A stretch of DNA of 64,000 nt from Candidatus Omnitrophota bacterium (GCA_023140385.1 JAGLLT010000017.1:1754-65753), one strand, 5' to 3'; counted from the stretch's first letter, positions 10,278 to 63,599 are shown. A program made the numbers and translations. The notes: a model not told the origin generated them from the letters alone.

Positions 10278-10288
10278 ATCTTCACTCC

Positions 10289-10753: not shown

Positions 10754-10766
10754 AACGCCTATAACC

Positions 10767-12722: not shown

Positions 12723-12723
12723 A

Positions 12724-13314: not shown

Positions 13315-13336
13315 TTTAAAACCCCCAATTTTTTCC

Positions 13337-20865: not shown

Positions 20866-21447
20866 TCACTCAGCGCTCTCTTGACCATTATCAGCCGCTT
20901 CCCTGAAAAAACCCCCATAGTCGCTAAAAAAATCTTCACTGTCAAAAGAACTACTATTAGACAAAAGCCCCGTTAAAGACTCATAAACTCCCGGGGTTAT
21001 CATATAGACGCGCTTTGCCAGGGTAAAATCATTACCGTTTCGCGGTATAAAATCCGCTATCGGGCTCATCGCCGCTATTACAAAAATAAGGCTGATAACA
21101 ATAAGGCCCCGCAGAACGCCTAAGGCCAGGCCGCCCGGCTTATCCACTATCCATATGAGCCGTACCTTTATTTTACCAAACACCCTGTTATTTATAAATA
21201 TAAGTAACGCGTAAAAAAACATTAAAAGGACACCAAAAGATAAAGCGTCAAGAATCAACGAACCTTCAGCGAATAAACTACCCGCTAAACCGCCAAGGCG
21301 GCTACTTGCTTCTTTAAAAAGAATAAAGGTTAGCACGAAAGAAATAAAAACATTAAAAAATGATACTATTTCCAGGAACAGCCCTTTTTTAAAGCCAAAA
21401 AGTGCATAGGTTGTTACAATAGCGATAATTATCGCGGGCAATATCAT
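20866..21447 (-). CDS. cvpA: CvpA-family membrane protein
   Basis: 4-TM small membrane protein with a CvpA-like N-terminus (MILPAIIIAIVTTYALFGFKKGLFLEI). Confidence 0.65.
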   Translation of the reverse strand: MILPAIIIAIVTTYALFGFKKGLFLEIVSFFNVFISFVLTFILFKEASSRLGGLAGSLFAEGSLILDALSFGVLLMFFYALLIFINNRVFGKIKVRLIWIVDKPGGLALGVLRGLIVISLIFVIAAMSPIADFIPRNGNDFTLAKRVYMITPGVYESLTGLLSNSSSFDSEDFFSDYGGFFREAADNGQESAE

Positions 21448-47625: not shown

Positions 47626-48843
47626 TTAACTTATCAATTCAGCTATATTAAATACCGGTAAGTAAAGAGCTATCACAATCCCTCCGATAATAACTCCTAA
47701 AACAACAATTATTACCGGTTCAATCAGAGAGGTTAAGCCATCTACGATAGCCGTAACTTCAGCATCATAAAAATCAGAAACCTTGAGCAGCATCTCTTCA
47801 AGGGAACCTGTTTGCTCACCGACAGCTACCATTTTAACGACCAGAGGTGGAAATATGCCGCTGCTTGCCAGAGGTTGGGCTATGCTCTCGCCCCCCCTAA
47901 CATTTTCCAGAACCTTGAAAACTACTTTTTCAATTACTTTATTGCCGCTTGTTTTGGCAACAATATCCAGGGAGGTCAAAATAGAAACGCCGCTTTTTGT
48001 CAGAGTGCTTAATGTCCTTGAAAATCTGGAAATGGAAACCTTCCTTATTAGTTTACCAGCTATAGGGAGCCTTAAGAGCATCCCATCAATGAAAAGCCCG
48101 CCGGGTTCTGTCTTGGAAAACATAAAAATCCCCGCGATTACAGCCGCGATTCCAAGTACAAACGCGAGAAGCCATTTAGTCACCAAATTGCTTAACAACA
48201 ACAAAAACTGTGTCGGCCCGGGCAAGTTCGCGCCAAAGCCGGAGTATATTTCCGCGAAAGACGGAACCACCTGAACCAGCATAAATACCGTAATACCCGC
48301 CGCCGTAAGCGTAATAACAACAGGATATACTAAGGCAGCCTTAACCTTCTTCTGCAGTTTACTTGTCTCTTCCAGATAAGAAGCCATACGTTGTAAAATA
48401 TCATCCAGCATACCTGAGGCCTCACCGGCTGAAATCATGTTAACGAAAAGCGTTGAGAAGGCTCTGGGATACCTGGATAGAGCTTCCGATAGGCTGCTGC
48501 CGCCCTCAACTGCTTCTTTCACTTTACTAATCAAAGATTTAAACGGCCTTTTTTCTGACTGTTCAACAAGTATCTCAAGGCCCTGAATTAAAGGAAGGCC
48601 GGCACTTACCATAGTAGCCAACTGCCTCGAAAAAACAGCCAGGTCATCCGTTTTTATTTTGATTGAGGAAGATGGCGGGTTAAAGCTGAAAGCAAAGGGG
48701 GATTTTTTATTTTTACTTATGGAAAGGATGAAGCACTTTCTCTCTTTTAAGATATTTACAGCAGCTTCCTCGGTGGGAGCGCTCAAGATACTGGTTGACA
48801 CCGTTCCATTTTTCTTTTTAATGGTGTATTTAAATTCGGGCAT
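47626..48843 (-). CDS. pilC: Type II secretion / type IV pilus platform protein (GspF/PilC family)
   Basis: Two T2SSF repeats and 3 TM segments over 405 aa. Last gene of the operon. Confidence 0.85.
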   Translation of the reverse strand: MPEFKYTIKKKNGTVSTSILSAPTEEAAVNILKERKCFILSISKNKKSPFAFSFNPPSSSIKIKTDDLAVFSRQLATMVSAGLPLIQGLEILVEQSEKRPFKSLISKVKEAVEGGSSLSEALSRYPRAFSTLFVNMISAGEASGMLDDILQRMASYLEETSKLQKKVKAALVYPVVITLTAAGITVFMLVQVVPSFAEIYSGFGANLPGPTQFLLLLSNLVTKWLLAFVLGIAAVIAGIFMFSKTEPGGLFIDGMLLRLPIAGKLIRKVSISRFSRTLSTLTKSGVSILTSLDIVAKTSGNKVIEKVVFKVLENVRGGESIAQPLASSGIFPPLVVKMVAVGEQTGSLEEMLLKVSDFYDAEVTAIVDGLTSLIEPVIIVVLGVIIGGIVIALYLPVFNIAELIS

Positions 48844-48851
48844 AGGTTATT

Positions 48852-50546
48852 TTACTCCGAAGTTATCCTCAAGACCTCTTCTATTGTCGTCTGCCCCGCG
48901 AGAAACTTTTTAACGGCGTTCTCCCACAGCGTCTTCATACCTTTTGAAACAGCATATTCCTTAATCCTATCGCTTGACTCTTTAGCCAGAATCATATTTT
49001 TAATCTCTTCATCAATCTCCATAACCTCAATCGTCCCCATTCTTCCCATATAACCTGTGTTATTGCACTGCTTACATCCTTGAGCCTGATAGCCGGTAAT
49101 TTCTTCCTTCACGTTAATGCCTAATTTTTTTAGAACTTCCATAGGCACCCTATATTCACGGCGACAAGCGGAACAAACCCTTCTGCAAAGCCTTTGAGCA
49201 ACAACTAAAATAAGACTTGAAGCAATCAAAAAGGGCTCTATGCCCATATCAACCAGCCGCGTTATGGCGCCGGCAGCATCATTTGTATGAAGCGTACTGA
49301 AAATCAATAAGCCTGTAAGTGACGACTTAATGGCAATATCAGCCGTCTCCGAATCTCTAATCTCACCAACCATAATTACGTCTGGACTTTGTCTTAATAT
49401 TGATCTGAGCCCTCCGGCGAAAGTCAAACCTATTTCCGGTTTAACCTGAACCTGAGTTATCCCCTCAAGCTGATACTCTACAGGATCTTCGATAGTCATT
49501 AAACTCACCTTAGGCTTGTTAAGCTGATTTAAGATTGAATAGAGGGTCGTTGATTTACCTGAGCCGGTGGGCCCTGTAACCAAAATCATACCATAGGGCT
49601 TAAGGACAGCTCTCTTAAAGGCTTCAAGAGGCTCTGACAAAAAACCAAGCTTTTCCAGGCCGACACTCAAATTGGACTTATCAAGAGCTCTCATAACAAT
49701 TTTTTCACCATGAGCTATGGGCAGGCAGGAAACCCTAAAGTCGATTTCTTTGTCTTTAAATTTTACCTTAAACCTCCCATCCTGCGGCAGTCTTCTTTCG
49801 GTAATATCCAGATTGGACATTATTTTCAGGCGGGCAATAAGGGCATTCTGATACTTTTTCGGTATTTCAAAGGCCTCCTGAAGCTCCCCGTCAACACGGT
49901 AACGGATACGCAAAATATTTAGATAAGGCTCTAAGTGTATATCACTGGCCCTTTGCTTCAAGCCTTCGTCTATAATACGGCCAACCATCCTGATAACCGG
50001 AACCTTCTCATCAACCTGCATCATCTGAACCTCACCCTTTACATGCTCCAACTCCGATTCCTGTCCAGACCCCGCCTCATTTAGCATATCCATCACTCCG
50101 GCGTTAACACCTCCATAGGCTATCCTAATTGCCTTTTTAACCTCATCCGGAGTGCTGATAATTGGTTTAATTGTCATACTGGTTAAACTTTTAATATCAT
50201 CAAGGGCGAATATATTTAAAGGATCGGCCATAGCAATGGTCAGGGTATTGCCAATTTTTGAAAGAGGTATTACAAGATAATGACTGGCAATCTGTTCGGG
50301 AATAATCTTTAAAACTTCAAAGTCAATCTTATATTTGGAGAGCTTTATAATAGGTAGATTCAGTTGGCTCGCCAGACAGCTCATCAATTGCTCTTCACTG
50401 ACCGCCCCCTGCTTAACAAGAATCTTGCTTAGCAAACCTCCTTCATTCTTCTGAATTTGAATTGCCTTATCCAGAGCGTCCTTTGAAATGAACTGGCTAT
50501 CAAGTAACGTTTTTTTAATTTTTTCTTCAAGGCTAATTTTAGCCAT
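48852..50546 (-). CDS. pilB: MshE/PilB-family assembly ATPase with an N-terminal MshEN (c-di-GMP-binding) domain
   Basis: The two MshEN motifs are LLDSQFISKDALDKAIQIQ and LSKILVKQGAVSEEQLMSCLASQ. Walker A is LVTGPTGSGKSTTLYS and the tetracysteine is CSAC…CKQC. Confidence 0.85.
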   Translation of the reverse strand: MAKISLEEKIKKTLLDSQFISKDALDKAIQIQKNEGGLLSKILVKQGAVSEEQLMSCLASQLNLPIIKLSKYKIDFEVLKIIPEQIASHYLVIPLSKIGNTLTIAMADPLNIFALDDIKSLTSMTIKPIISTPDEVKKAIRIAYGGVNAGVMDMLNEAGSGQESELEHVKGEVQMMQVDEKVPVIRMVGRIIDEGLKQRASDIHLEPYLNILRIRYRVDGELQEAFEIPKKYQNALIARLKIMSNLDITERRLPQDGRFKVKFKDKEIDFRVSCLPIAHGEKIVMRALDKSNLSVGLEKLGFLSEPLEAFKRAVLKPYGMILVTGPTGSGKSTTLYSILNQLNKPKVSLMTIEDPVEYQLEGITQVQVKPEIGLTFAGGLRSILRQSPDVIMVGEIRDSETADIAIKSSLTGLLIFSTLHTNDAAGAITRLVDMGIEPFLIASSLILVVAQRLCRRVCSACRREYRVPMEVLKKLGINVKEEITGYQAQGCKQCNNTGYMGRMGTIEVMEIDEEIKNMILAKESSDRIKEYAVSKGMKTLWENAVKKFLAGQTTIEEVLRITSE

Positions 50547-50576
50547 CTTATTTCTCTCTATGAAAAAAGTAAAAAG

Positions 50577-52298
50577 CTAAACTACTGTAACCCTTAATAT
50601 TTCCTCTAAGGCGGTAATTCCCTTGGCGGCTTTTATTAAGCCGTTTTCTCTAATGGTATTCATGCCCTCAGAGCCCGCCTGCTTTAATAAGCTGGCTTCT
50701 GATTCCCTCTTAATAATTATATCTTTGATCGCGCTTGACAAAAGAATGGCCTCGCTAATTACCACTCTTCCCTTGTAGCCCGTATTCTGACAGCTGGGAC
50801 AACCTTTTCCTTTATAAAAACTTTTTATCTCGGCGTTAATTTTCTTTTCAATTTTATCCAACCCAAGATTCTTCCTCAAATTATTATTTATTTCATAGGC
50901 CTCTTTGCAATTAGAACAAACTCTTCTAACTAATCTTTGAGCTATAAAAAGAAGACAGGATGAGGTAATTAAAAAAGGTTCTACGCCCATATCGACCATT
51001 CTGATTACAGAACCCGCGGCCGAGGTTGTGTGCAGGGTACTCAAAACAAGGTGTCCGGTTAAAGCGGCTTTGATAGCCACGTCAACGGTCTCAAAGTCCC
51101 TGATCTCGCCTACCATAATTATATCCGGATCCTGCCTTAATATTGACCTTAAGGCGGAAGCGAAGGTCAAGCCGGCCTTCGGCAGGCATGTTACTTGATT
51201 TACCCCCTCTAATTCATATTCAACCGGATCTTCTACAGTAACTATATTTTTGGCCGGGGAATTAACAAGCTGTAAAACTGAGTAAAGTGAGGTGGTTTTG
51301 CCGCAGCCGGTAGGCCCGCAGACCAAGATCATGCCGTGGGGGCGCCTGGCACTTTCCTTTAATCTTTCTAATACCTGCTCCTCAAAGCCAAGTTTATTAA
51401 TATCTAAAGTTGACGACGACTTATCCAAAACTCTCAGGGCAATCTTTTCTCCAAAGCTTGAAGGTAAAACAGACACCCGATAATCAACCTCTCTTTTCAG
51501 CACCCGGACTTTAAACCTTCCGTCTTGGGGAAGACGATGCTCGGCTATATTGAGATTTGACATTACCTTTATGCGAGAAATAATAGCGCTATGAAGAGCC
51601 TTGGGGACCGTCGGACTTTCCTGCAGGATTCCGTCCACTCTATACCTTACCGTTGTTTTCTTTTCCTGCGGCTCAATTAAAACATCGCTTGCCGCGCGCC
51701 TAACAGCTTCGGTAAGTATCAGGTTGGTTAATCTAATAACCGGCTTCTCGCCCATCATCTTCAGCAAGGTATCAGCATCCTGAACCTTGCCGTCTGAGCT
51801 CGCCTTAACGTCCTTCAAAAGGCTTTCATCGCCCTCCCTCAGGAGACTTTCAAGCTTCCCGCCCTGGCCGTAATACCTATCAAGGGCACTAAGGATTTCC
51901 TCTTCACTACTTATAATGGGATGAATAACAAATCTGGTTAAAGCCTTTAAATCATCAATGGCAAAAATATTTAAAGGATCGGACATAGCAATAGTTAAAG
52001 TATTGCTTATTTTTGAAACTGCTATTAAGACATACCGCCTGGCCAGCTCTTCCGGAATTAATTTAACAATCTCCTTGTCTATCCTGAGCTTGTCGAGAGA
52101 AATGAGTGGAATGCCCGAACTCTCACTTAAAGCCGCCATCAGGTCATCGTTTTTAACAAACTTTAAGGAAATCAATATATCTCTCAACTTCCCCTGTTTT
52201 TGTTTTTGTATCTTGAGTGCTTCCTCAAGCTGCTGGCGGGTAAGCAGTTTATTCTCTAATAAAATCTTAATAACTTCTTCTTTTAAGTTTTTCGCCAT
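50577..52298 (-). CDS. Second MshE/PilB-family ATPase with an N-terminal MshEN domain
   Basis: The two MshEN motifs are LLENKLLTRQQLEEALKIQ and LRDILISLKFVKNDDLMAALSES. Walker A is LVCGPTGCGKTTSLYS and the tetracysteine is CSNC…CPSC. Confidence 0.85.
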   Translation of the reverse strand: MAKNLKEEVIKILLENKLLTRQQLEEALKIQKQKQGKLRDILISLKFVKNDDLMAALSESSGIPLISLDKLRIDKEIVKLIPEELARRYVLIAVSKISNTLTIAMSDPLNIFAIDDLKALTRFVIHPIISSEEEILSALDRYYGQGGKLESLLREGDESLLKDVKASSDGKVQDADTLLKMMGEKPVIRLTNLILTEAVRRAASDVLIEPQEKKTTVRYRVDGILQESPTVPKALHSAIISRIKVMSNLNIAEHRLPQDGRFKVRVLKREVDYRVSVLPSSFGEKIALRVLDKSSSTLDINKLGFEEQVLERLKESARRPHGMILVCGPTGCGKTTSLYSVLQLVNSPAKNIVTVEDPVEYELEGVNQVTCLPKAGLTFASALRSILRQDPDIIMVGEIRDFETVDVAIKAALTGHLVLSTLHTTSAAGSVIRMVDMGVEPFLITSSCLLFIAQRLVRRVCSNCKEAYEINNNLRKNLGLDKIEKKINAEIKSFYKGKGCPSCQNTGYKGRVVISEAILLSSAIKDIIIKRESEASLLKQAGSEGMNTIRENGLIKAAKGITALEEILRVTVV

Positions 52299-52307
52299 CT
52301 ATAGATT

Positions 52308-52832
52308 TTACTCCTCGGGGGCGGTGCCGCCCTGACTGTTTTCTTCATCCACTTGTCGCGGAGCATTGCTAAAGTTAAGTTTAGCAATGTCCTCTTCCCG
52401 CGAAACGATACTTCCGTACAAGCGGTTTATAGCGTCCTTTATATCACTTGCCGTACTGACAAAGGCCGTAACCTTACAGTTCGTTATATACTCAAGGTCT
52501 TTTATGGCAAAATCATTTAGCGGATCTGACATAACTACAGTCAAAACATTCCCAATTTTGTCAATGGGAATAAGAAAATATTGCCTGGCAACGTTCTCCG
52601 GCACAAGCTTTATTGCCTCAATATTAATGTCATAATTACTCAAAGGCAGATAAGGAAAACCGTACTGATCAGCCAGGGACATAACCAAATTCTCTTCACT
52701 AATAAAATTCAGCTCAATTAAAATCTGCCCTAAAAGGCCGCCCTTTTCTTTTTGAGACTTCAGGGCTTCATCTAACTGAACCTGCGTAATTATCTTTTTC
52801 TCAATGAGAAGCTGTCCCAGCTGTTTTTTCAT
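52308..52832 (-). CDS. Stand-alone MshEN (T2SSE_N) domain protein, putative c-di-GMP receptor
   Basis: 174 aa. The two motifs are LGQLLIEKKIITQVQLDEALKSQ and LGQILIELNFISEENLVMSLADQ. There is no ATPase domain. Confidence 0.7.
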   Translation of the reverse strand: MKKQLGQLLIEKKIITQVQLDEALKSQKEKGGLLGQILIELNFISEENLVMSLADQYGFPYLPLSNYDINIEAIKLVPENVARQYFLIPIDKIGNVLTVVMSDPLNDFAIKDLEYITNCKVTAFVSTASDIKDAINRLYGSIVSREEDIAKLNFSNAPRQVDEENSQGGTAPEE

Positions 52833-52853: not shown

Positions 52854-55800
52854 TTATTCTTTTAACTTTCTCTTGACGCTTTCTATCGCTTTACTAACCT
52901 TTCTTCTTACTTCATCATTACTGTATTGAGAATAAAGTTTCAGGGTTTCAAGGCAGCCCCTGTCTCCTATAAGCCCCATAACCTCTATAATATTCATAAT
53001 AACTTCTACATCTCTGGTGGCCGATAATTCACGCCTTAACTCTTCAAGGGACTTACTTCCGAATTTTGCGAGAATTTCAGCTATGTATCGCCTGTTTAAA
53101 TAAGCATCATAGGGATCAATCCTTTTGTTAGGTTTAGATAAAAGATTGACAAAATAATCTACCGTCCCTTCGCCCGCTTCATCAATCAGCGAAGCAATGG
53201 CTTCAGCGTCTGTTCTTCTTACCTTTACCTTAAACACTCCGGCAAGAGCCTTTACGTTTTCCTTTTTAGCAATCTGAGCCAAAACTTTGCTTAAAACATT
53301 CTTCCGCTCTTCGCCGATTTTCTCACCGGGCGCAGTAATTTCCTTAATAAACCGGGTTATGGAAACAGCCAAATCAAATTCCTTCTTATTAATAAAGATG
53401 CCGATAAGCCTGTCTAAAACGAGACTTTCCGAGGTAAAAACTGAAAGATCCTTTTCACCGCCTATCACATCCACAAGACACCTGCTTATAAAACGCAGGC
53501 AATCTATAGCATCATTGGAGCTTAAAATATCTACTATGCTCTGAAGATTAGCCGCTACATATAGACGAACCTGACAATTTTCAGACTCAAAATTTTTAAA
53601 TATTTTACTCAGGGCTTCATTAACTACCTCTTCTTTGTTGTCCAAAAGCAGTTCATAGAAGACCTCCTTCACGCTTTCTAAAAGTTCCTGATCCAAGAAG
53701 GACTCCGCGGACAAAGACTTTATTTTAATAAGCTTATCAGAATAAGAGAGGTTGCGCCATAAATCAGGTTTTAAAAAACTAAGAAACTGCTCATTGGAAA
53801 TGCCGCAAGCGGAAAAACTCTGACTCATTGATTCAAGAATACCAACCCTTCTTTTCTTATCCGGCAAGAACCTTTTTATGTAATCTTTTATGTCGGTAAA
53901 ATTAACTTTACCCTGCTTATATCTCTCACATTCCTGCGCGAAAAAAGTTTCTATTTTGCTATCAGGAAGTTCGCTAAAGGCTTTAGCCATTTCATCGGAG
54001 GTAATTCCCACATTTTTAAGATTTTTCTGTTTTAAAATCTGAGAGCGCAGCTCAGGCTGTAGATTAAGTACAAACTGTAGAAGGTTTTCCTTATACCGCT
54101 TTTGTTTTTCAGAATTTTCCTTTAAAACCTCACTTTTCATCTTTTTTAAACTTTGCTTTACGATATCAGCTTTTTCGTTTATGTTCATGTTCTGAAAATC
54201 AAAATCACTCTCAGCGGCACCAGGGCCTTCCGGGCCTTTAGAAAAAATCCCGGCTAAATAATCCGGGTTCCGGCCTAAAACATCAAGCATAGAACTTCTT
54301 GAATCAGTTGAAGCTTCCGGTCTACTAAGCATATAATTTATTAGCATTACTTCATTAATCTTGCTTCTTTTTTCCTGCGGCCGGCCAAGCTTCTTTCTTA
54401 ATATCTTCTCGTAATGAACCATGATAAGCTTAATGCCCGCTACGTTATTTTGCTTAAGTATAGCCTGCAGGCCGCCCAAATCATCTATCTCTGACGTTTT
54501 TTTTGAAAGAGCCGTGAGAAAAACGTCAAGCTCTCCTTCTTTCACGTCTTTCTCAAAGAAAAAAGACTGTATTCTATACTTTTTTAATAAAGAAGCGAGG
54601 CTGCCGATTACTGCGCTTCTAACATCCTTAGCCCTCAGCTCTCCCCCATTTACTAGAAGATAACCCTCAACATCAGAAAAAGAAATCACCTCATATCCCT
54701 TAAAAAGCTCTCCTAAATAATTATATAACTCCCTCACCGAATCAACCCTGACCTTGCTCCCCTTGGGATATAATCCATAATTTACAATCCCGGCCCTTAA
54801 AGAAACAATAACCTTAATGATAAGCCTATAGTCATCTTTTTTAAGCGGCTCTACAGCAAGAGGCAACTCCTCCTCCTCTTCTTCTTTTAGGCCGGCCAAC
54901 TCTCTTGATAAGACTTCCTGCAAATACTGGTTAGCTTCATCCGAATTAAAACTTCTTAAGGCTTCATCTTGGGCAATCTTTTCATAATCGGATGCCTTTT
55001 TCGCGTCTTTGGCCTTTTTAAAATGATAGGCAAGAAGGTTAGCCGCGGCCTGCGGATTGCTACTGCTTGACGCCTCCGCGATCTGAGCGAATTTTTCATG
55101 AAGTTTATTGCGCTCATTTTCCTGAACTTCGTCATAAAGCAGCTCCCAGAGCAGTTTATTTCTAAAACTAAATATCTCCTGCCCCCCTGTTTCGCGGGAA
55201 TCAATAAACATCTTCTGCCTGGACCGCTCTATCATCTCGCCGATGTAGCCGGGACTTTTACCAGTCATCTTTTCCAGAGCTTCAAGGCTGAACTCTTGCC
55301 CCAAAACAGCCGCGTTAGACAAAAAATACTTGGTCTCTTCATCCATATGCTTAAGCTTATCCTGTATAATTTCCTTGATACCTAAAGATATATCATCGTC
55401 TTTGATTTCCTTTTTACGCCATTTTTCGTCTTTAAAGTAAATTGAACCGTTTTCGATAAGTTTTCTCAAGGACTCTTCTATAAAATACGGATTACCTTCT
55501 GTTCTTGAGTAAAATAACTGATTTAACTTGTCATCAAATTCCAAGTCGCCAAAAATAGAGTTAATCATCTTTTTGGTTTCCTCGGAGCTAAGCGGCTTAA
55601 GTTCTACGCAAAGACTTTTTTGATTTCGCTGTAACTGTTCATATAACTGCCGTAGTATTATATTCTCATCAAACCTTCTTATTAATTCCGAGTAGCGAAA
55701 AGCGCATACAATACAGATTTTTTCATTTACCTCATTGCTTAACAAATAATTAATAAGAGAAATCGTGGCCAAGTCGACCCACTGAAAATTGTCAAAAGTT

Positions 55801-56864
55801 ATAAATAAAGGCTTTTGCTGAGATAACTTTATCATCAGTTCCGCCAACGCCTTAAAAAGATGGGATCTGAAGTTTTTTTCGTCAAGTTTTACCTTTTCAA
55901 TCCGGCGGCTTGAAAACTTTTGAAGGGCCGGCTCCAACTCAATCAGGCAAGAAAGCTCTATCTCAGACAAGCTGTCAATTATCCGCTTGGCTCCATCCCC
56001 AAGCGACTTCATAACCCCCTCAAGGTTGGCCGATAAGACCTGATATGGTTGGGAAGATATGACTTCAGTGCAGCGGGCCGCTAATGAAAGACTTTCTTTT
56101 GACAGAGCATAACTCGCGGCTTCTAATTGAAGCTTGCTTTTTCCCAAGCCTGCTTCAGCCTGTATAAGAACCGTCCTGGCTGTATTATTCCCAAAACTAT
56201 CGTCTATTACCTCTTTAATTCTCTTTAAGTTCTTTTCTTTTCCGATAATCTCAAAAGACAAAAGTTCAAATACTTTATCTTTATTCAATATATCTTCGGG
56301 TACTTGCGTAAATATGGAAACTCTGTTTCTACCGGTTCTTTTAGATAAATATAAGGCTTCATCCGCGCGATAAATAAGTTTTTCGGCGACTTGCGCGTCA
56401 CGCGGATACAAGGCAAGGCCCAGACTTAAGGTTAAGTTTATATCGCGCTGGCCGCCTTCTCCCGCAAAAACATACTGTGAAATCCTGCCTATCAGCCTCC
56501 CGGAGATCTTTAACGCGTCGCCTTCAGCCGTCATAGGCAGTATCACAATAAATTCATCACCGGCATATCTTATTATCTCATCATACTCACGAAAACTCTC
56601 CCTCAGTAAATCAGCCACCTCCATCAACACCTTATCTCCTCTCAGATGCCCATAGGTATCATTAATCTCTTTAAACTTATCTATATCTATCATAAATAGC
56701 GATAAAGGGTACTGTTCTCTGTCGGCCTTTTCTATATTTTCTCCAAGGCATTTATTTAGATAACGCCTGTTATGAAGATTAGTCAGATCATCCCGATAGA
56801 TTAGTTCCTGTACTGCCTCTTTGTCCTCTATATAAAGTTGTTTTTTCCTTCGATCTCTCTGCAT
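52854..56864 (-). CDS. 1336-aa multidomain protein: N-terminal GGDEF (AGDEF variant), AAA+/STAND-like NTPase, a long middle region and C-terminal HEAT repeats
   Basis: The GGDEF domain has DLTNLHNRRYL…RYAGDEF. Walker A is TVLIQAEAGLGKSKL, with a Walker B-like FITFDNFQWVD. The C-terminus has HEAT/PBS-lyase-like repeats (…NDEVRRKVSKAIESV). Confidence 0.7.
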   Translation of the reverse strand: MQRDRRKKQLYIEDKEAVQELIYRDDLTNLHNRRYLNKCLGENIEKADREQYPLSLFMIDIDKFKEINDTYGHLRGDKVLMEVADLLRESFREYDEIIRYAGDEFIVILPMTAEGDALKISGRLIGRISQYVFAGEGGQRDINLTLSLGLALYPRDAQVAEKLIYRADEALYLSKRTGRNRVSIFTQVPEDILNKDKVFELLSFEIIGKEKNLKRIKEVIDDSFGNNTARTVLIQAEAGLGKSKLQLEAASYALSKESLSLAARCTEVISSQPYQVLSANLEGVMKSLGDGAKRIIDSLSEIELSCLIELEPALQKFSSRRIEKVKLDEKNFRSHLFKALAELMIKLSQQKPLFITFDNFQWVDLATISLINYLLSNEVNEKICIVCAFRYSELIRRFDENIILRQLYEQLQRNQKSLCVELKPLSSEETKKMINSIFGDLEFDDKLNQLFYSRTEGNPYFIEESLRKLIENGSIYFKDEKWRKKEIKDDDISLGIKEIIQDKLKHMDEETKYFLSNAAVLGQEFSLEALEKMTGKSPGYIGEMIERSRQKMFIDSRETGGQEIFSFRNKLLWELLYDEVQENERNKLHEKFAQIAEASSSSNPQAAANLLAYHFKKAKDAKKASDYEKIAQDEALRSFNSDEANQYLQEVLSRELAGLKEEEEEELPLAVEPLKKDDYRLIIKVIVSLRAGIVNYGLYPKGSKVRVDSVRELYNYLGELFKGYEVISFSDVEGYLLVNGGELRAKDVRSAVIGSLASLLKKYRIQSFFFEKDVKEGELDVFLTALSKKTSEIDDLGGLQAILKQNNVAGIKLIMVHYEKILRKKLGRPQEKRSKINEVMLINYMLSRPEASTDSRSSMLDVLGRNPDYLAGIFSKGPEGPGAAESDFDFQNMNINEKADIVKQSLKKMKSEVLKENSEKQKRYKENLLQFVLNLQPELRSQILKQKNLKNVGITSDEMAKAFSELPDSKIETFFAQECERYKQGKVNFTDIKDYIKRFLPDKKRRVGILESMSQSFSACGISNEQFLSFLKPDLWRNLSYSDKLIKIKSLSAESFLDQELLESVKEVFYELLLDNKEEVVNEALSKIFKNFESENCQVRLYVAANLQSIVDILSSNDAIDCLRFISRCLVDVIGGEKDLSVFTSESLVLDRLIGIFINKKEFDLAVSITRFIKEITAPGEKIGEERKNVLSKVLAQIAKKENVKALAGVFKVKVRRTDAEAIASLIDEAGEGTVDYFVNLLSKPNKRIDPYDAYLNRRYIAEILAKFGSKSLEELRRELSATRDVEVIMNIIEVMGLIGDRGCLETLKLYSQYSNDEVRRKVSKAIESVKRKLKE

Positions 56865-56879
56865 AACGCTTAGACACCT

Positions 56880-57953
56880 CTAAAGATCCTTTAACATCCT
56901 CTTTAAATCTTCTACTTCGTTTGTTCTTGATAAGGCAGATTCATAATCAATTCTTCCCAACTGACAAAGCTCTTTTAGGCTGTGATTCATCGCTTTCATC
57001 CCATCCTTCTGTGAAGTCTGTATTACGGAATATATCTGATGAATCTTTTGTTCCCTTATTAAACTCCTGACGGCAGGAGTTAAAACCAACAGTTCAAACG
57101 CCAAAACTCTACCGGAACCGCTGGCCCTAGGTATCAACTGCTGTGATATAACGGCGTTTAACACAAAAGAAAGCTGTACCCTTACCTGTTCCTGCTGGTG
57201 CTGAGGAAAAACGTCAATTATCCTGTTAATCGTTTGAGCGGAGTCCGAAGTATGAAGTGTTGCCAAAACCAGATGCCCTGTCTCGGCGGCGTTTAGAGCC
57301 AACTCTATGCTCACTAAATCTCTCATCTCACCGATTAATATAACATCTGGATCCTGACGGAGGACATGCTTGAGAGCCTGAGAAAAAGAATGGGTGTCGC
57401 GGCCTACTTCACGCTGATCAATAACCGCTTTTTTATTCGAGTATAAATACTCTATCGGATCCTCTATAGTTACAATATGAACCGGGCGATCATTATTAAT
57501 AAACTCTACCATGGCGGCTAAGGTGGTTGATTTTCCGCTTCCCGTCGCGCCGGTTATTAGCACCAGCCCTTTATTCTTCACGCACAATTCAGTCATAGTG
57601 TTGACCGGCAGGCCGCACCCCTCAAAAGACATAATTTTGGCCGGCAAGGCCCTGATAGCAACCCCGATTTTTCCTTTTTGATAAAACACATTGGCTCTAA
57701 AACGCGCTATCTTTTCTATGCCAAAGGACATGTCCAGCTCGAGATCCCTTTCAAGAGCCTTTTTTTGATCTTCGCTAAGAATACCGCTTAGCAGATTTTG
57801 TATCTCCTCACTGCTGAGACTCTCGTAATCACAGGGAATTAGCTTCTCGTCAACTCTAAAATGCGGAACAGAGTCAGATGATAAATGCAGGTCAGACGCC
57901 TTTTTCTCTACCATCAACAATAAAGCTTCCTTAAGAACAGTTAACCTGGTCAA
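56880..57953 (-). CDS. pilT: Type IV pilus retraction ATPase PilT
   Basis: ASDLHL N-terminus. Walker A is LITGATGSGKSTTLAAM, with AIRHVLRQDPDVILIGEMRD. The TTG start at 57953 has an AAGGAGGTG SD; the alternative ATG is at 57914. Confidence 0.85.
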   Translation of the reverse strand: MTRLTVLKEALLLMVEKKASDLHLSSDSVPHFRVDEKLIPCDYESLSSEEIQNLLSGILSEDQKKALERDLELDMSFGIEKIARFRANVFYQKGKIGVAIRALPAKIMSFEGCGLPVNTMTELCVKNKGLVLITGATGSGKSTTLAAMVEFINNDRPVHIVTIEDPIEYLYSNKKAVIDQREVGRDTHSFSQALKHVLRQDPDVILIGEMRDLVSIELALNAAETGHLVLATLHTSDSAQTINRIIDVFPQHQQEQVRVQLSFVLNAVISQQLIPRASGSGRVLAFELLVLTPAVRSLIREQKIHQIYSVIQTSQKDGMKAMNHSLKELCQLGRIDYESALSRTNEVEDLKRMLKDL

Positions 57954-58002: not shown

Positions 58003-59424
58003 TCAAGTATATACTTTATTGGCGTCTTGAGACCGCGCCCGATCCAACAGCTTCCGGGCCTTGATGACTAACTCCTCAGAGCTCATCCCGTCCAATGGAT
58101 TAGCCGTTACCGCCGCGCTTACGGTTATATTTTTCTCGGGCATTGACTCCTGATTTGCAAAGTCAAAATTCTCAATTTTCTCTCTGATTTTATCAGCTGT
58201 CATATGAGCTTCTTTTTTATTCTTCTCAGGAAGAATCAAAGCAAAAGCACACTGTTCAAACCTGCCCACCTTATCTATCCGCTCAACGTTTGCCTTTATG
58301 ATAGAGGCTATTTTTTTCAATATCTCATCCGAAACCTGCTTGCCAAATCTGTCCTGGCAAGCGTCAAAATTATCGACTTCCACTAAGATAAAAGAACACG
58401 GCCGCTGATATGTAATAGCTCTTTGAATCTCCTCATTTAAACGTTCTCTTAGATATTTTATATTATATAGCCCCGTCAACTCATCTCTTACTGAAAGCTC
58501 TTTGGTTTTATTCATAAGCAAGTTATTTTCTATAGCAATAGAAATCTGCTTACTAAAGACCTTCATCAGCTCCAGGTCATCACTCGCGAAACTAAAATCA
58601 TTTTTATTGTTACCGAGAATCATATCGCACTTAACCTCACCGTGAAGTACAACAGGAAAAACAATTATGTTATTTAAATTCAGGCTTTTTTTTAAGCTCT
58701 TTGTTGCACCATCAACTCTGTGCTTCTTATCCAAAACTAAGCTTTCCCGCTGCTTTGAAAGCCTGGCAAGAACACCTTCGGAAAAATCTTTTTCAAGGGC
58801 TTCCATTTCTTCGGGTTTAAGATTATTAGTAGCCTTTATCTTTACCCCGGCGCCTTCCGCCTCAAAAATTACCAAAAAGCTTTTCTCGCAGTCAACAACA
58901 TCAGGAAGTCTTTCGATTACAGTCTGCAATATTACGCTAAGATCTCCGGCGCCGGACATAATGCTGCTAACCTGAAAAAGAGTCGATAGGGCTGTCATTT
59001 TTTTATTGATGTCCAGATTAATGCTTCTTATCTGCTCCTCATAGCCCTTTAAAGTATCTACATTTTTATTTATTTTTGAAGCCATTGAGTTAATAGAAAT
59101 ACTTAAATCACCGATTTCATCCTCTCTGTTAGTCGGAATTTGCCCAAGATCATTGCCGTCTGTATAAAGTTTGAGTTTTTTAGAAATCTGAATAACAGGA
59201 TCAACGATGCTTTTAGCCACAAACAGGCCCAAAAGCGCTATAATGGTTGTTATTAAAACCAACAGGCTGGTGTCACCGATAATTATATCCTGCTCATACA
59301 CGTATTTATTTATAAGAACTCCACAGAGTAAAAGGGGCATAATTGACATAAGGCTAAAAGCTAAGATTAATTTATACTTCAGGCCCTTTGGCATTAAAGA
59401 TACCGCTTTAAATAACTTATACAT
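58003..59424 (-). CDS. Membrane signalling protein: 2 TM, HAMP, GAF and a degenerate GGDEF domain
   Basis: The GGDEF fold is RDELTGLYNIKYL…, but its signature is GRFEQCAF instead of GG(D/E)EF. Confidence 0.65.
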   Translation of the reverse strand: MYKLFKAVSLMPKGLKYKLILAFSLMSIMPLLLCGVLINKYVYEQDIIIGDTSLLVLITTIIALLGLFVAKSIVDPVIQISKKLKLYTDGNDLGQIPTNREDEIGDLSISINSMASKINKNVDTLKGYEEQIRSINLDINKKMTALSTLFQVSSIMSGAGDLSVILQTVIERLPDVVDCEKSFLVIFEAEGAGVKIKATNNLKPEEMEALEKDFSEGVLARLSKQRESLVLDKKHRVDGATKSLKKSLNLNNIIVFPVVLHGEVKCDMILGNNKNDFSFASDDLELMKVFSKQISIAIENNLLMNKTKELSVRDELTGLYNIKYLRERLNEEIQRAITYQRPCSFILVEVDNFDACQDRFGKQVSDEILKKIASIIKANVERIDKVGRFEQCAFALILPEKNKKEAHMTADKIREKIENFDFANQESMPEKNITVSAAVTANPLDGMSSEELVIKARKLLDRARSQDANKVYT

Positions 59425-59538: not shown

Positions 59539-60624
59539 TTAACTATCGTCAAATTTCAGATTTAGTAAAATTCCCGCCAAAATTAAAAAAACTATTATGT
59601 GTGAACCGCCATAACTGATAAAAGGCAGGGGCAGGCCGACTACAGGCATAAGGCCGATGCACATGCATATATTTATCACAACGTGAAGCACAAATAGAGT
59701 ACTTATGCCAACCGCCAGCAATTTTTTCTCCATATTCTCCGACCTCTGGGCTATGTTAAGCCCTTCCCAGATAATAATGAAAAAAAGCAGTATTACAATT
59801 ACGGCGCCGATAAATCCCCACTCCTCACCAATGCAGGAAAAGATAAAGTCCGTATGATGTTCAGGCAAAAAATTCAACTGCCCCTGGCTCCCCCTAAGCA
59901 GCCCTTTTCCCCAAAAACCACCGGAACCGATAGCGATTTTTGACTGAATGATAGTGTATCCGGCGCCCAGCGGGTCAATATCGGGATTAATAAAAACCAG
60001 AAGTCTCTGTTTCTGATAATCTTTCAAGAGAGTCCATAAAAGCGGAGCGGCCGCCGCGCCGGATATAAACGTTAAGACAATATACCTTAATCTTATACCC
60101 CAGATGTAAAGCATAGCAAAAAGAATGGGGATAAAAATTAAAGAAGTCCCCAGATCAGGCTGCTTCAGGATAAGTATCACCGGAAAAAAAACCAGGATAA
60201 GGCAGACTGCCACACATCCGGCCCCCGCTTCTTTGTATTTATAAGAAGATAAAAATCTGGCCAGAGTTAAAATGATTACCAGCTTCATCAGCTCCGAAGG
60301 CTGGCAATTTACGCCAAAAAAGGAAACCCATCTGGCCGCGCCCAACTTCGGCTGGGCGATAAACATTACTATTAAAAGCAAAATTAAATTAGCGGCATAA
60401 AAAAGATAAGATAATTCCAGAAGTCTTTTGTAGTTGATGATAAAAACTAAACCCGCGAGACAGGCGCCAATGGCAATCCATCTTAGCTGTAAAGCGACGT
60501 AGTTTATCTTCGTTCCCGACTCACCGCCATACGAAGCGCTATAAAGAGCCGCGCAGCCTAAAATAAGAAGTAAAATTAAGGCCGACGGCAATAAATAACT
60601 TCTCTTTCGCTCACTTAATATCAT
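59539..60624 (-). CDS. rodA: Rod-shape-determining protein RodA (SEDS family)
   Basis: 10-TM FtsW/RodA pattern (…GAARW…PSELMK…). It is adjacent to PBP2 and mreBCD. Confidence 0.8.
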   Translation of the reverse strand: MILSERKRSYLLPSALILLLILGCAALYSASYGGESGTKINYVALQLRWIAIGACLAGLVFIINYKRLLELSYLFYAANLILLLIVMFIAQPKLGAARWVSFFGVNCQPSELMKLVIILTLARFLSSYKYKEAGAGCVAVCLILVFFPVILILKQPDLGTSLIFIPILFAMLYIWGIRLRYIVLTFISGAAAAPLLWTLLKDYQKQRLLVFINPDIDPLGAGYTIIQSKIAIGSGGFWGKGLLRGSQGQLNFLPEHHTDFIFSCIGEEWGFIGAVIVILLFFIIIWEGLNIAQRSENMEKKLLAVGISTLFVLHVVINICMCIGLMPVVGLPLPFISYGGSHIIVFLILAGILLNLKFDDS

Positions 60625-62348
60625 TATTTTGATAAATACTTCCTTTTAATAAATTCAATAATTTGCCTGCTTACGCCGGCGGCCTCAACGCCGCCTGCAC
60701 CGCCATGCTCTAAAAAAACTACCAGGGCAAACTCCGGTTTATCGGCCGGAAAAAAACAGGTAAAACAGGCATGCGTAAGCCCGGAGGAAGTTTGGGCGGT
60801 CGCGGTTTTTCCGGCTACCCTAACTCCTTCAACCTGAGCTCTCCTGCCTGTACCGCTGTCAGAGACAACCAACTTTAATCCGCGCCTGACAATATCAAGG
60901 TTTTCCTTTTTAAAATTAAGCCTCCTGGGCTTTTTTGAGCAGGCTTCCAAATCAGCTATCTTTTTGACTATCTGAGGGCAAACCAGATTGCCTCCGTTAG
61001 CAATTACGGAAATCATCCTTAATATTTGGATGGGCGTAGCCAGAAAATAACCCTGCCCGATGGCAAATATTACCGTCTCTCCGTCATACCACCGCTCTCC
61101 CTTTTTTTTCAGCTTCCACTCTTTATCCGGTACCAAGCCGGCCGCTTCACCCCCCAACTCTATTCCTGTAGGCCTGCCAAAACCAAATTGTCTCGCGTAA
61201 GAACTCAAGGAATCAATTCCCGCGCCTAAACCCGCCTTATAAAAAAATACGTTACAGGAATTTTTCAGAGCATCAATAATCGTCTCTTCACCGTGACCTT
61301 TTGAATACCAGCAGCGAAAGGTGCTTCTCCCGAGTTTAAAGTAGCCGGGGCAATTAATGGTTTGCCCGACATCTACAACCTTTGTCTCTAAAGCGCAAAG
61401 AGCGGTCACTACCTTAAATACCGAGCCGCTTGGATAAGCAGACTGAATATTCCTGTTCGTCATAACCGAATCTTTTGAGTTAAAGATTACTTTAATTTTT
61501 CTGCTTCTTTGGGGAGAGGGACTGACGATGACGTTGGGATTAAAGCTGGGAGTGCTTACCATAGCCAGAACTTCGCCGCTAAAGGGGTTCATAACACAAA
61601 CAGCGGCTTTTCTTTCTTTAGTCAGGTTGTAAATATAATTCTGCAGTTCAATATCAATAGTAAGGTGCAGATCTTTACCTTTCCGAGGAGCTTTGTGGCC
61701 TAATATCTTTATCCACCTCCCTTTGTTGTCCACCTCAATCTGATATCCGCCGTCTTCTCCTTTCAGATAGCTGTCAAAGGCCGCTTCTAATCCGGTGCGC
61801 CCGATAAAGTCAACTATCCTGTAGCCATAAAACCTCAGCTTTTTATACTCCTGCCAGGTTAGCTTGGTTATGTAGCCGATTAAGTGCGCCGTTGACTCCT
61901 CATAGACATATTCCCTTAGGGGAACTGTCTCAATTACAATTCCCTTTAACCGCAAAATCTTCTCCTCAATCAATATCGCCTTCTTTTTAGGAATGTCCTC
62001 CGCTACAACCGCCGGCACAAAAGGATTTATCGCGTTTTGTTTTAGTTTTTCCCTTAATGCCGCGACCGGTATTTCGAGGATAGCGGAAAGCTTTGTCAGG
62101 GTAGAGCTGTTGCTGCCGGCCTCACGCGGTATAACCGCCGCGTTAAAAGAGAGCCTGCTTTTAGCCAGAAGCTTCCCTTCCCGGTCGTATATGTTTCCTC
62201 TGGCGGCCATGATAGGTATTAAGCGCACCCTGTTTTCCCGGCTTTGTCTTTTATAATGCTGGCCCTTGAAAAGCTGAATTCGCCCCAGGCCGGTTATCAG
62301 CAGGATAAAGGATAGTAAAATCACTAATTTAATATGAACGATTCTCAT
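60624..62348 (-). CDS. mrdA: Penicillin-binding protein 2 (elongasome transpeptidase)
   Basis: N-terminal anchor and dimerisation domain. The transpeptidase motifs are SGSVFK, SCN and KTGTA. Confidence 0.85.
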   Translation of the reverse strand: MRIVHIKLVILLSFILLITGLGRIQLFKGQHYKRQSRENRVRLIPIMAARGNIYDREGKLLAKSRLSFNAAVIPREAGSNSSTLTKLSAILEIPVAALREKLKQNAINPFVPAVVAEDIPKKKAILIEEKILRLKGIVIETVPLREYVYEESTAHLIGYITKLTWQEYKKLRFYGYRIVDFIGRTGLEAAFDSYLKGEDGGYQIEVDNKGRWIKILGHKAPRKGKDLHLTIDIELQNYIYNLTKERKAAVCVMNPFSGEVLAMVSTPSFNPNVIVSPSPQRSRKIKVIFNSKDSVMTNRNIQSAYPSGSVFKVVTALCALETKVVDVGQTINCPGYFKLGRSTFRCWYSKGHGEETIIDALKNSCNVFFYKAGLGAGIDSLSSYARQFGFGRPTGIELGGEAAGLVPDKEWKLKKKGERWYDGETVIFAIGQGYFLATPIQILRMISVIANGGNLVCPQIVKKIADLEACSKKPRRLNFKKENLDIVRRGLKLVVSDSGTGRRAQVEGVRVAGKTATAQTSSGLTHACFTCFFPADKPEFALVVFLEHGGAGGVEAAGVSRQIIEFIKRKYLSK

Positions 62349-62841
62349 AGGCTAAAAACCCTAACGACTTCTTTAAAAAAATACAAAGCGGGCCAAAAAT
62401 AAAGGTGGAATACAGCGCCGTCGGCAGGATTACCATTTTAAGCGCCTCGATAAAACCCGCGAGAGGCAGAAAAACTCTCGAGGCCAGATAATAAAGACTA
62501 TAAACCGCCAAAACAGAACTAAAACATATAAAAAGCTGTATCGGAATATTTTCGCGATACACCCTTTGGCCGTATAAGGGCAAAACAAAACCGCACAAAC
62601 CAAAGGTTAAAATATTTAAGCCAAAAATCCCACCTGACAATACGTCACCGATAAAACCGGCAAAAAGCGCCGTCTTCAGGCAAAAGGAACCTTCAAAGTA
62701 AAAGGTGGAGAAGATAACGATTGTCAGTAGAATATCCGGTTTTACGCCGGCAACGCGGAAACGGTACAAAAAAGTTGCCTGCATAAGCGCCGCCAAAATC
62801 ACAAAAAAAATCAAAAACTGCTTTTGACTTCTTTTACGCAT
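62329..62841 (-). CDS. mreD: Rod-shape-determining protein MreD
   Basis: Small 5-TM protein between mreC and mrdA. Confidence 0.6.
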   Translation of the reverse strand: MRKRSQKQFLIFFVILAALMQATFLYRFRVAGVKPDILLTIVIFSTFYFEGSFCLKTALFAGFIGDVLSGGIFGLNILTFGLCGFVLPLYGQRVYRENIPIQLFICFSSVLAVYSLYYLASRVFLPLAGFIEALKMVILPTALYSTFIFGPLCIFLKKSLGFLAYENRSY

Positions 62842-63599
62842 AAGACCTCCTCAAGCTTCATCAAGGCGGCCTCCGGCCGCACCAGAGCAATGGTATACAA
62901 GGAGGAAGCATCGTGGCTGATACTAATAACCTCCCCTATCAAAAGGCCTTCGGGATATAACCCGCTATTGGCGGAAGTAACTACCTTATCCCCCTGCATT
63001 ATCTTGCTTTCCAAAGGCAGGTATTTCATCCGGCATAAACCTTTATAGACACCTTCTAAAAGGGCTTCATCTCTGGTTCGTTGAATTTTGGCCGCTACGC
63101 GAGAAACCGGATCGGTCAAAAGCATCACCCTGCACACTCCTCCATCGGCCTCTATTACCCTTCCCGCCAAGCCGGAGCAAGATAGAACCGCCGCGCCTTC
63201 TCTTATTCCATCATTTGTTCCTTTATCAATTATTATTGTGTTAAACCAGTTTGTCGTATCCCGCCCGATGACCCTCGATGCAACTGTGTCAAATAGAACT
63301 TTTTCTTTAAACTCAAAAAGCTTCTGAAGCCGGAGATTCTCCAACCGGATCTCTTCAAAAGAAGTAAGCCTCCCCTTTAATAGACCCACCTCCCGCCTTA
63401 GGGCGCTATTTGACTGAAGTATATGTTTATATTCCAGGAGGCCGGCTAAATTTCTTGAAGATACTTCTGAGGCACTTAGAGGATATTTAAATGCTGAAAG
63501 AAAGACATTTTTTATTTTATTAGAAACTCTATTTGGAAGGAATACTATAGCTATAAATATTAAAGCGCATACAATCCAAGTGATTCTTTTTATAATCAC
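62811..63599 (-). CDS. mreC: Rod-shape-determining protein MreC
   Basis: N-terminal TM, coiled coil and beta-rich C-domain. It follows mreB. Confidence 0.8.
   Translation of the reverse strand: MIIKRITWIVCALIFIAIVFLPNRVSNKIKNVFLSAFKYPLSASEVSSRNLAGLLEYKHILQSNSALRREVGLLKGRLTSFEEIRLENLRLQKLFEFKEKVLFDTVASRVIGRDTTNWFNTIIIDKGTNDGIREGAAVLSCSGLAGRVIEADGGVCRVMLLTDPVSRVAAKIQRTRDEALLEGVYKGLCRMKYLPLESKIMQGDKVVTSANSGLYPEGLLIGEVISISHDASSLYTIALVRPEAALMKLEEVLCVKEVKSSF

Follow-up and report, generated by a model that had tools for sequence, protein, structure and literature searches.

The protein studied here is encoded at 52854..56864 (-) of a 64,000-nucleotide stretch of DNA from an uncultured Omnitrophota bacterium (hereafter the window), and it is a real, conserved, and hitherto uncharacterised signalling protein. 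Its 1336 amino acids (aa) join a GGDEF domain carrying the variant motif AGDEF, a STAND-type NTPase module, an α/β domain here called LYP, and an ARM/HEAT-like α-solenoid, and its gene is embedded in an operon for the motor of a type IVa pilus. The GGDEF domain is probably an active diguanylate cyclase, since its catalytic residues other than the first position of the motif are intact. Because the gene adjoins a small gene for a cyclic di-GMP (c-di-GMP) receptor of the MshEN type as well as the pilus motor ATPase genes, the protein probably provides the pilus with a private second-messenger control of its own. It is proposed, with middling confidence, that a signal- and ATP-driven STAND oligomer pairs the cyclase domains, and that their product c-di-GMP is read by the adjacent MshEN protein, which would tune the pilus motor.

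The reading frame runs from ATG to stop over 1336 codons without internal stops, with a Shine-Dalgarno-like GAGGTG about 11 nucleotides (nt) 5' of the ATG. The same protein, identical, is present on six contigs from independent metagenome assemblies, and it corresponds to database entry MCK5306054.1 (Candidatus Omnitrophota), labelled 'diguanylate cyclase'. About 70 proteins between 1150 and 1480 aa in length were retrieved by homology search; they contain GGDEF and AAA_16 (and HEAT_2) domains and are 20-54% identical to the window protein, a range that also covers full-length homologues. Most of them come from Omnitrophota and Desulfobacterota-like metagenome-assembled genomes, one with 53% identity is assigned to Ca. 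Kappaea frigidicola, and 'diguanylate cyclase' is their sole annotation. In total, more than 100 full-length homologues of 1270-1450 aa keep one domain order. An earlier note on this DNA had read the order GGDEF, P-loop NTPase, unassigned middle and HEAT repeats from the translation, and this order is borne out by Pfam, NCBIfam and the structure model; the motifs that it quoted were all found, namely, A101-G-D-E-F105, AEAGLGKS (236-243), and LFITFDN (353-359). Scans of the window for promoters and terminators gave no signals over shuffled expectation.

The GGDEF domain (aa 23-181; 56322..56798 (-)) was recognized by PF00990 (E 1.4e-44; 152 bits vs. a gathering score of 23.8; model positions 2-161 of 161) and by TIGR00254 (E 2.5e-47; 160.7 bits), so that the identification of the N-terminal domain by the earlier note held up. 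Among proteins of known structure, it is closest to DosC, PleD, and WspR, which are active cyclases (E 1e-35 to 1e-29). In the active-site motif (A101-G-D-E-F105; 56550..56564 (-)), A101 replaces the first Gly of the GG(D/E)EF signature. The remaining residues expected of a cyclase are present, i.e., those for metal binding, guanine specificity, and phosphate or transition-state contacts (D60, D62, N68, D77, K175, and D103-E104), and D60, D62, K65, N68, D69, H73, D77, K175, and the GDEF core are invariant in an alignment of 23 homologues. The window protein also has R179, in an alignment column where Arg predominates. D77 is the canonical residue at a position occupied by Ser in the Hypr GGDEF domains that make cyclic GMP-AMP. 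Five residues ahead of the active-site motif lies an RxxD I-site (R92-E-Y-D95; 56580..56591 (-)), which is predicted to serve product inhibition; it is present in 47 of the 119 long family proteins from which motif counts were taken, and missing in the other 72.

The AGDEF motif is not peculiar to the window protein. Within an invariant R-Y-A-G-D-E-F, it occurs in 23/23 aligned homologues and in at least 90% of a 47-sequence alignment, and among the 119 long family proteins, 107 carry AGDEF and 12 GGDEF. In fusions to AAA_16 that have TPR sensors, the N-terminal GGDEF domains mostly read AGDEF too, and the C-terminal GGDEF domains of kinase-AAA_16-TPR-GGDEF proteins read GGEEF. Since AGDEF is near-universal in the family and common in the N-terminal GGDEF-AAA_16-TPR fusions, it is, as judged from these alignments, a hallmark of the GGDEF-STAND unit and not a one-off decay. 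AG(D/E)EF makes up approximately 1.6% of GGDEF domains, and VCA0965 of V. cholerae is a natural AGDEF cyclase that is active in vitro and in vivo (PMC3974145). At another locus (L157, 5245-11580 (+)), two tandem GGDEF-AAA_16-TPR genes of approximately 1050 aa each have the canonical GGDEF and no LYP domain, showing that the cyclase-STAND unit exists with TPR sensors as well and can duplicate.

The central STAND module comprises a P-loop NTPase core (AAA_16, Pfam E 3.6e-14; aa 206-378; 55731..56249 (-)) and a helical arm/winged-helix region (aa 379-667; 54864..55730 (-)) that was delimited by NCBIfam and profile matches. The core, which the earlier note had correctly called an NTPase, has a Walker A motif of the GxxGxGK[ST] type (AEAGLGKS) and a Walker B motif of the hhhhD[DE] type (LFITFD358-N359), and G239, G241, and K242 of the former and D358 of the latter are invariant in the 23-sequence alignment. 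The arm contains the GxP motif G457-N-P459 within TEGNPYFIEES, with G457 invariant and P459 conserved in at least 90% of the sequences. Residues 206-667 align to the ATPase-plus-helical part (model positions 483-932) of the NCBIfam model TOMM_kin_cyc, a TOMM kinase/cyclase fusion (E 1.5e-36). Hundreds of proteins from metagenomes were matched by a profile of aa 195-672 (E 1e-60 to 1e-90); their architectures include AAA_16-TPR-GerE (MalT/LuxR), Guanylate_cyc-AAA_16, TIR_2-AAA_16-TPR, and BTAD-cyclase-AAA_16-TPR, and the profile covers MalT-like proteins end to end, with helical arm, GxP motif, and winged helix. What had been described as STAND-like is strengthened by these matches, and aa ~379-667 are assigned on sequence grounds to the STAND module. 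The whole protein then shows the tripartite layout of effector (GGDEF), nucleotide-binding oligomerisation module (AAA_16 and arm), and repeat sensor (LYP and α-solenoid). A metagenome scan with the STAND profile gave mainly other AAA_16 STAND proteins and about five loci of the family. Among PDB sequences, the STAND region had 0 matches as a single sequence, and as a profile only generic P-loop proteins (ClpC, RuvBL2), which were rejected.

Downstream of the STAND module, an α/β domain at aa ~676-815 (54420..54839 (-)) is named LYP after L698-Y699-P700, which is invariant in the 23-sequence alignment. Modelled alone with AlphaFold2, it reached a predicted local distance difference test score (pLDDT) of 92.4 and a predicted template modelling (TM) score of 0.87, and the modelled elements follow the order of two long helices, β-hairpin, helix, strand, three helices, and strand. 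The domain has no Pfam match and no credible match among PDB sequences, and a Foldseek search of the model against the PDB gave no relative (best E 0.54, TM <=0.3). The REC lobe of SaCas9 (E 0.003 among PDB sequences) was rejected as compositional (HMMER bias 5.0), and a relationship with the stand-alone MshEN protein was rejected as well (hhalign probability 0.9%). A word-index homology search with the LYP alignment found nothing, probably owing to the limit of the word index, and an exhaustive HMMER search with the LYP profile picked out 5372 representative proteins from 1.84 billion; 1754 of the 5372 had E <= 1e-10. Many of the matches, including relatives of about 1400 aa, contain two LYP copies. 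Other settings (P0137-P0275) include stand-alone LYP+HEAT proteins and LYP+HEAT with a cyclic-nucleotide-monophosphate (cNMP)-binding domain (P0270, P0274), and P0235 is a 2140-aa Pkinase-GGDEF-AAA_16-LYP-HEAT protein; LYP usually lies N-terminal to the HEAT repeats. Because LYP occurs stand-alone, duplicated, and with cNMP-binding and kinase-GGDEF partners, LYP+HEAT behaves, from its distribution in sequences, as a mobile sensor/scaffold cassette tied to nucleotide signalling.

The C-terminal part (aa ~860-1336; 52857..54287 (-)) is an ARM/HEAT-like α-solenoid according to the structure model and Foldseek. The model is all-helical with an α-α solenoid fold, its block-averaged pLDDT is mostly above 75 and reaches 90-96 in the C-terminal half, and the Foldseek matches are designed ARM proteins, importin-β, SF3B1, PP2A-A, and CAND1 (E 1e-6 to 1e-4). 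HEAT_2 gave a match below its gathering score at aa 1257-1323 (E 9.7e-5), and PF13646 is carried by most homologues according to precomputed domain lists. The stretch of about 500 aa that had been left unassigned in the earlier note is therefore no longer so: it resolves into the STAND helical arm (to ~667), the α/β domain (~676-815), and an α-solenoid that joins the HEAT repeats.

On the minus strand of the window, the gene order is mreBCD, PBP2, rodA, a degenerate HAMP-GAF-GGDEF gene, pilT, the cyclase-STAND gene, an MshEN-only gene, pilB, pilB, pilC, an outer membrane protein (OMP) gene, and rimP-nusA-infB. From the HAMP-GAF-GGDEF gene to pilC, all genes lie on one strand with intergenic gaps of 8-49 nt; pilT ends 15 nt upstream of the cyclase-STAND gene, and the MshEN-only, pilB, pilB, and pilC genes downstream are spaced 8-30 nt. 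PilT (357 aa; 56880..57953 (-)) is a retraction ATPase (TIGR01420, 464 bits vs. a cut-off of 319). The two PilB-type ATPases (573 aa, 50577..52298 (-), T2SSE E 8e-135, TIGR02538 646 bits; and 564 aa, 48852..50546 (-), T2SSE E 2e-136, TIGR02538 640 bits) are both just below the TIGR02538 equivalog cut-off of 675, and the platform protein PilC has 405 aa (47626..48843 (-); T2SSF E 7e-63; best NCBIfam match PilC). PilT, PilB, and PilC are thus encoded in one transcription unit, and the pilus-motor setting described previously was confirmed. The first gene of the cluster (58003..59424 (-)) encodes, by Pfam and sequence, a HAMP-GAF-GGDEF membrane protein, in which R-F-EQCAF replaces RxGGDEF and substrate-binding positions are altered. 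With this degenerate site, the cyclase-STAND protein is the only plausibly active cyclase of the cluster, and the membrane protein may be a sensor or receptor partner instead of a cyclase; its gene has the same place in L003, L004, L094, and probably L117.

The gene directly downstream of the cyclase-STAND gene encodes a stand-alone MshEN protein of 174 aa (52308..52832 (-); NCBIfam NF053729, 63.8 bits vs. a cut-off of 38); such proteins have 144-174 aa at the family loci. In MshEN, c-di-GMP is bound by the motif (R/K/L)LGxx(L/V/I)(L/V/I)xxG(L/V/I)(L/V/I)xxxxLxxxLxxQ, present in two copies five residues apart, and the guanine of c-di-GMP is hydrogen-bonded by the backbone amide of Gly3 (PMC11731258; PMC12943098). 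The 174-aa protein contains the full 53-residue pattern of two 24-residue motifs and a 5-residue spacer, QLGQLLIEKKIITQVQLDEALKSQ [KEKGG] LLGQILIELNFISEENLVMSLADQ, in which motif I deviates at its first position (Q) and both motifs do so at position 10. Gly3 and Gln24 are kept in both motifs in 11/11 stand-alone MshEN proteins, in the alignment of which they are invariant together with the Leu cluster. Gly3 was found in either motif in none of the 10 four-helix bundles that are fused to ATPases, and in three loci the ATPases are without the bundle altogether. Tandem PilB paralogues, as at 48852-52298 (-) in the window, also stand side by side in L003, L004, L094, and L117, and the N-terminal bundles of both paralogues are without the Gly3 of both motifs; in L009, L091, and L092, one ATPase has no N-domain and the other no bundle.

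The linkage of cyclase, receptor, and motor genes recurs across the family. The window gene order is found again in L094 (55% identity) and in P0011 (30% identity), where pilins and pilMNOPQ follow, and in rearranged form in P0024 and L117 (~26% identity). In P0048, P0045, and P0031 (~20-25% identity), a reduced order is seen (cyclase-STAND / MshEN-only / ATPase / ATPase / pilC) with unrelated upstream genes, and the contig of P0014 stops just past the MshEN-only gene. Altogether, a stand-alone MshEN gene is immediately downstream in 9 of the 15 distinct family members examined, even next to unrelated upstream genes such as cobalamin or MerR genes, and wherever the contig goes on, PilB-type (T2SSE) ATPases and PilC come after MshEN. 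No pilins or PilMNOPQ genes adjoin the window operon, where the OMP gene, rimP, and nusA follow; they are directly downstream at the orthologous loci L003 and L004. The block mreB-mreC-mreD-PBP2-rodA (59539-63599 (-) in the window; L001, L003, L004) lies directly upstream of the pilus cluster though the cyclase-STAND proteins there are only 26-30% identical, and this arrangement is unusually stable. At the P0024 locus (L004, 8000-10004 (+)), genes for REC-GGDEF and REC-HD-GYP proteins stand between pilus genes directly upstream of the cyclase-STAND gene, and a second stand-alone MshEN gene is present as well, giving a complete local set to make, break, and sense c-di-GMP.

Two principles from known systems bear on how such a protein may work. 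GGDEF domains pair to condense two GTP molecules, as in PleD and WspR, and in STAND NTPases such as MalT and Apaf-1, ligand sensing at the C-terminus leads to ATP-dependent oligomerisation that gathers the N-terminal effectors. From the observed architecture, conservation, and gene linkage, we infer catalysis, oligomerisation, MshEN binding, and an effect on the pilus as follows. The protein would be cytoplasmic and follow the classical STAND plan, with an N-terminal effector, a central nucleotide-binding oligomerisation module, and a C-terminal sensor. Binding of a ligand or a partner protein to the LYP-HEAT region would release autoinhibition, ATP binding would let the NTPase modules oligomerise, and within the oligomer the GGDEF domains would pair as antiparallel dimers, the state needed for making c-di-GMP. 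The co-transcribed MshEN protein would then capture c-di-GMP locally, as might the PilB N-domains, perhaps more weakly, and c-di-GMP-loaded MshEN would modulate the PilB/PilT/PilC type IVa pilus motor; this would be the MshE paradigm with its 'receptor in trans'. The nucleotide-gated, spatially localised c-di-GMP production next to the motor ATPases that had been suggested in the earlier note is kept here as a prediction of this scheme. A more specific form, which is put forward tentatively, is a physically coupled three-part relay, in which the STAND NTPase would oligomerise upon a signal sensed by LYP, a new fold, together with the HEAT scaffold, the AGDEF cyclase would thereby be switched on, and MshEN, docked on the scaffold, would receive the c-di-GMP and act in trans on PilB proteins with decayed receptor sites of their own.

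Several observations weigh against this proposal. At Walker B (55788-55808 (-)), the window clade and the clade of P0045/P0048/P0055 have D358-N359, and the other clades have D-D; with the D-N pair, hydrolysis may be slow or absent and the switch may be naturally hydrolysis-impaired, and slow hydrolysis would mean a long-lived ON state. Beyond the P-loop, the STAND region is not matched by sequence to solved STAND structures in the PDB, and the HEAT_2 match of the window protein itself (23.0 bits) is under the gathering score of 27.7. Some distant relatives with two LYP copies have the degenerate motifs ASDEF, AGDNF, SGDSF, and ATDAF, and therefore catalysis is not universal in the wider family. 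Certain AGDEF proteins, e.g., NbdA, have been described as degenerate or inactive, so that there is no guarantee of activity here. The 38-bit cut-off of NF053729 is passed by all three MshEN-type proteins of the window, with 44.8 and 46.1 bits for the PilB paralogues, and the PilB proteins may bind c-di-GMP directly. Lastly, 6 of the 15 family members (P0017, P0041, P0035, L158, P0016, and P0028) lie away from MshEN and pilus genes, and hence the pilus link is a strong trait of a subfamily that the family at large does not share.

The AGDEF domain could be catalytically dead and serve as a receptor of GTP or, through the I-site, of c-di-GMP, on a STAND scaffold that recruits or regulates the pilus motor in a FimX-like way. 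The replacement of the first signature Gly in nearly all members would fit such a role, as would the retention of RxxD in the window clade, the clearly degenerate HAMP-GAF-GGDEF neighbour, the fully degenerate motifs of some relatives, and the inactivity ascribed to AGDEF in NbdA. Nevertheless, this alternative seems unlikely: the other catalytic and substrate-binding residues are invariant at 20-54% identity, which is unexpected in a mere receptor, the AGDEF domain of VCA0965 is active (PMC3974145), and I-site binding is not the conserved function, as the I-site is missing in 72/119 family proteins. It is also rather improbable that the protein is a general STAND-regulated cyclase that feeds a global c-di-GMP pool, with its operon position reflecting co-expression only and no dedicated MshEN relay. 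Such a role would agree with the unrelated contexts of 6/15 members (lpx genes, glycosyltransferases, two-component systems) and with the presence of another REC-GAF-GGDEF system in the same window, but against it speak the order of cyclase-STAND, MshEN-only, and ATPase genes, which survives at 20-30% identity with differing upstream genes, and the loss of Gly3 from the ATPase-fused copies where the stand-alone receptor retains its binding motifs.

Two further explanations carry far less weight. Defence is the role of many STAND NTPases of bacteria that carry enzymatic effectors, TIR-AAA_16-TPR proteins are among the close relatives of the STAND region, and GGDEF is occasionally the domain that generates a nucleotide signal in NTP-dependent conflict systems (PMC7159879, in passages on vWA-MoxR systems), so that an Avs-like anti-phage or conflict NTPase with a GGDEF effector that makes an alarm nucleotide was considered. 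This is disfavoured and very improbable in view of the conserved housekeeping surroundings (mreBCD-PBP2-rodA ... pil ... rimP-nusA-infB), common to homologues at 30% identity, the lack of any PADLOC model match at E <= 0.01, and the lack of mobile-element or defence-island signatures. That separate GGDEF, ATPase, and HEAT genes were joined into one long open reading frame by an error of assembly or annotation, a fusion artefact of the kind raised in the earlier note, is refuted by the occurrence of the identical protein on contigs of different assemblies, by the many full-length homologues with the same layout, and by the absence of internal stops from the reading frame.

Compared with MalT/LuxR-type STAND proteins (AAA_16-TPR-GerE), the P-loop and helical arm are homologous (profile E 1e-80 to 1e-90), the Walker A, Walker B, and GxP motifs are common to both, sensing falls to a C-terminal α-repeat, and ligand- and ATP-driven oligomerisation is presumed for the window protein. 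For MalT, activation by ligand- and ATP-driven oligomerisation is established. The output differs, being an N-terminal GGDEF enzyme instead of a C-terminal DNA-binding domain, and so does the sensor (LYP and ARM/HEAT vs. TPR). Fusions of class III cyclases with AAA_16(-TPR/LuxR), of which mycobacterial Rv0386 is an example, occur in L105 and L127; they likewise combine a dimerisation-dependent N-terminal cyclase with a homologous AAA_16 STAND module, whereas the window protein has c-di-GMP as its predicted product instead of cAMP, another sensor, and a dedicated linkage of its gene with those of a pilus motor. A common fold unites GGDEF and class III cyclases (Pei and Grishin 2001, as cited in PMC7159879). 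The GGDEF domain is similar to those of PleD and WspR (1e-33 to 1e-30), and the principle of switching on by bringing two GGDEF domains together is the same; oligomerisation is mediated there by phosphorylated receiver domains, and in the window protein it would be mediated by the NTPase. VCA0965 shares the natural AGDEF and an RxxD I-site, and it shows that AGDEF can be catalytic (PMC3974145); it has an unrelated sensory part and no STAND module, and AGDEF is the exception there and the rule in the present family.

On the receptor side, V. cholerae MshE/MshEN and the GSPII domains of Thermus PilF share the c-di-GMP receptor fold, the double 24-residue motif, and the position beside PilB-type ATPases. 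Here, the motif-competent MshEN is a separate polypeptide of 144-174 aa encoded directly after the cyclase, and the fused copies are without Gly3 or without the bundle. The FimX-PilZ-PilB system of Xanthomonas and Pseudomonas (PMC8389850) also consists of a large multidomain GGDEF protein and a small adaptor on PilB and is a working analogy for the set of LYP-HEAT protein, MshEN-only protein, and PilB; its FimX domains are degenerate and function as receptor only, the adaptor is PilZ, a STAND NTPase is absent, and homology is confined to GGDEF.

The single elements, i.e., GGDEF, the MalT-type STAND module, HEAT repeats, MshEN, and PilB, are already known. Their combination, the conserved linkage of cyclase, MshEN, and motor, the family-wide AGDEF, and the LYP domain appear to be new. 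In the literature searched, no paper was found on a GGDEF-STAND-HEAT protein, on STAND control of a diguanylate cyclase, or on c-di-GMP regulation of Omnitrophota pili. The earlier note had not recognised the architecture as a described family, which agrees with these searches, but related GGDEF-AAA_16-TPR proteins are common in databases; the stand-alone MshEN partner downstream, the widespread domain in the middle, and the occurrence of the family outside pilus operons had been absent from it. A central question in c-di-GMP research is how single diguanylate cyclases reach specific outputs ('local signalling'), and the locus brings cyclase, receptor, and motor together as a compact trio with genetic linkage, each step of which is accessible to experiment. 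STAND gating of GGDEF enzymes would be a regulatory mode of which no description was found, and the coupled relay, if true, would add NTP-driven oligomerisation to the modes of diguanylate cyclase activation and a 'receptor in trans' to the means by which c-di-GMP controls type IV pili, both of them new. LYP is itself a widespread domain (approximately 5400 representative proteins) without a Pfam model or solved structure that accompanies HEAT repeats and domains of nucleotide signalling. Omnitrophota are uncultured, often ultra-small, and probable predators or symbionts, with type IVa pili that are near-universal and implicated in attachment to host or prey (PMC10066038); the terms 'c-di-GMP' and 'GGDEF' are both absent from the text of that paper. 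For this reason, a regulator that is conserved within the pilus motor operon of these bacteria is a plausible control point for attachment.

Elsewhere in the window, a second c-di-GMP/two-component cluster at 8856-14605 (-) encodes a dCache-HAMP protein (13337-14605), a GAF-HisKA-HATPase kinase (10767-12722), and the REC-GAF-GGDEF regulator (8856-10310). Another GspE/PilB-family ATPase (522 aa; 21444-23012 (-)), which has no MshEN domain and lies beside an Amidase_3 gene (19732-20859), may be part of a second secretion or pilus system. The window also contains a gene for a PEP-CTERM-tagged protein (3922-4776 (-)) and one for an AsmA/YhdP-like protein (5002-7515 (+)), the latter being the only large gene on the plus strand, as nearly all the rest of the window is minus-strand.

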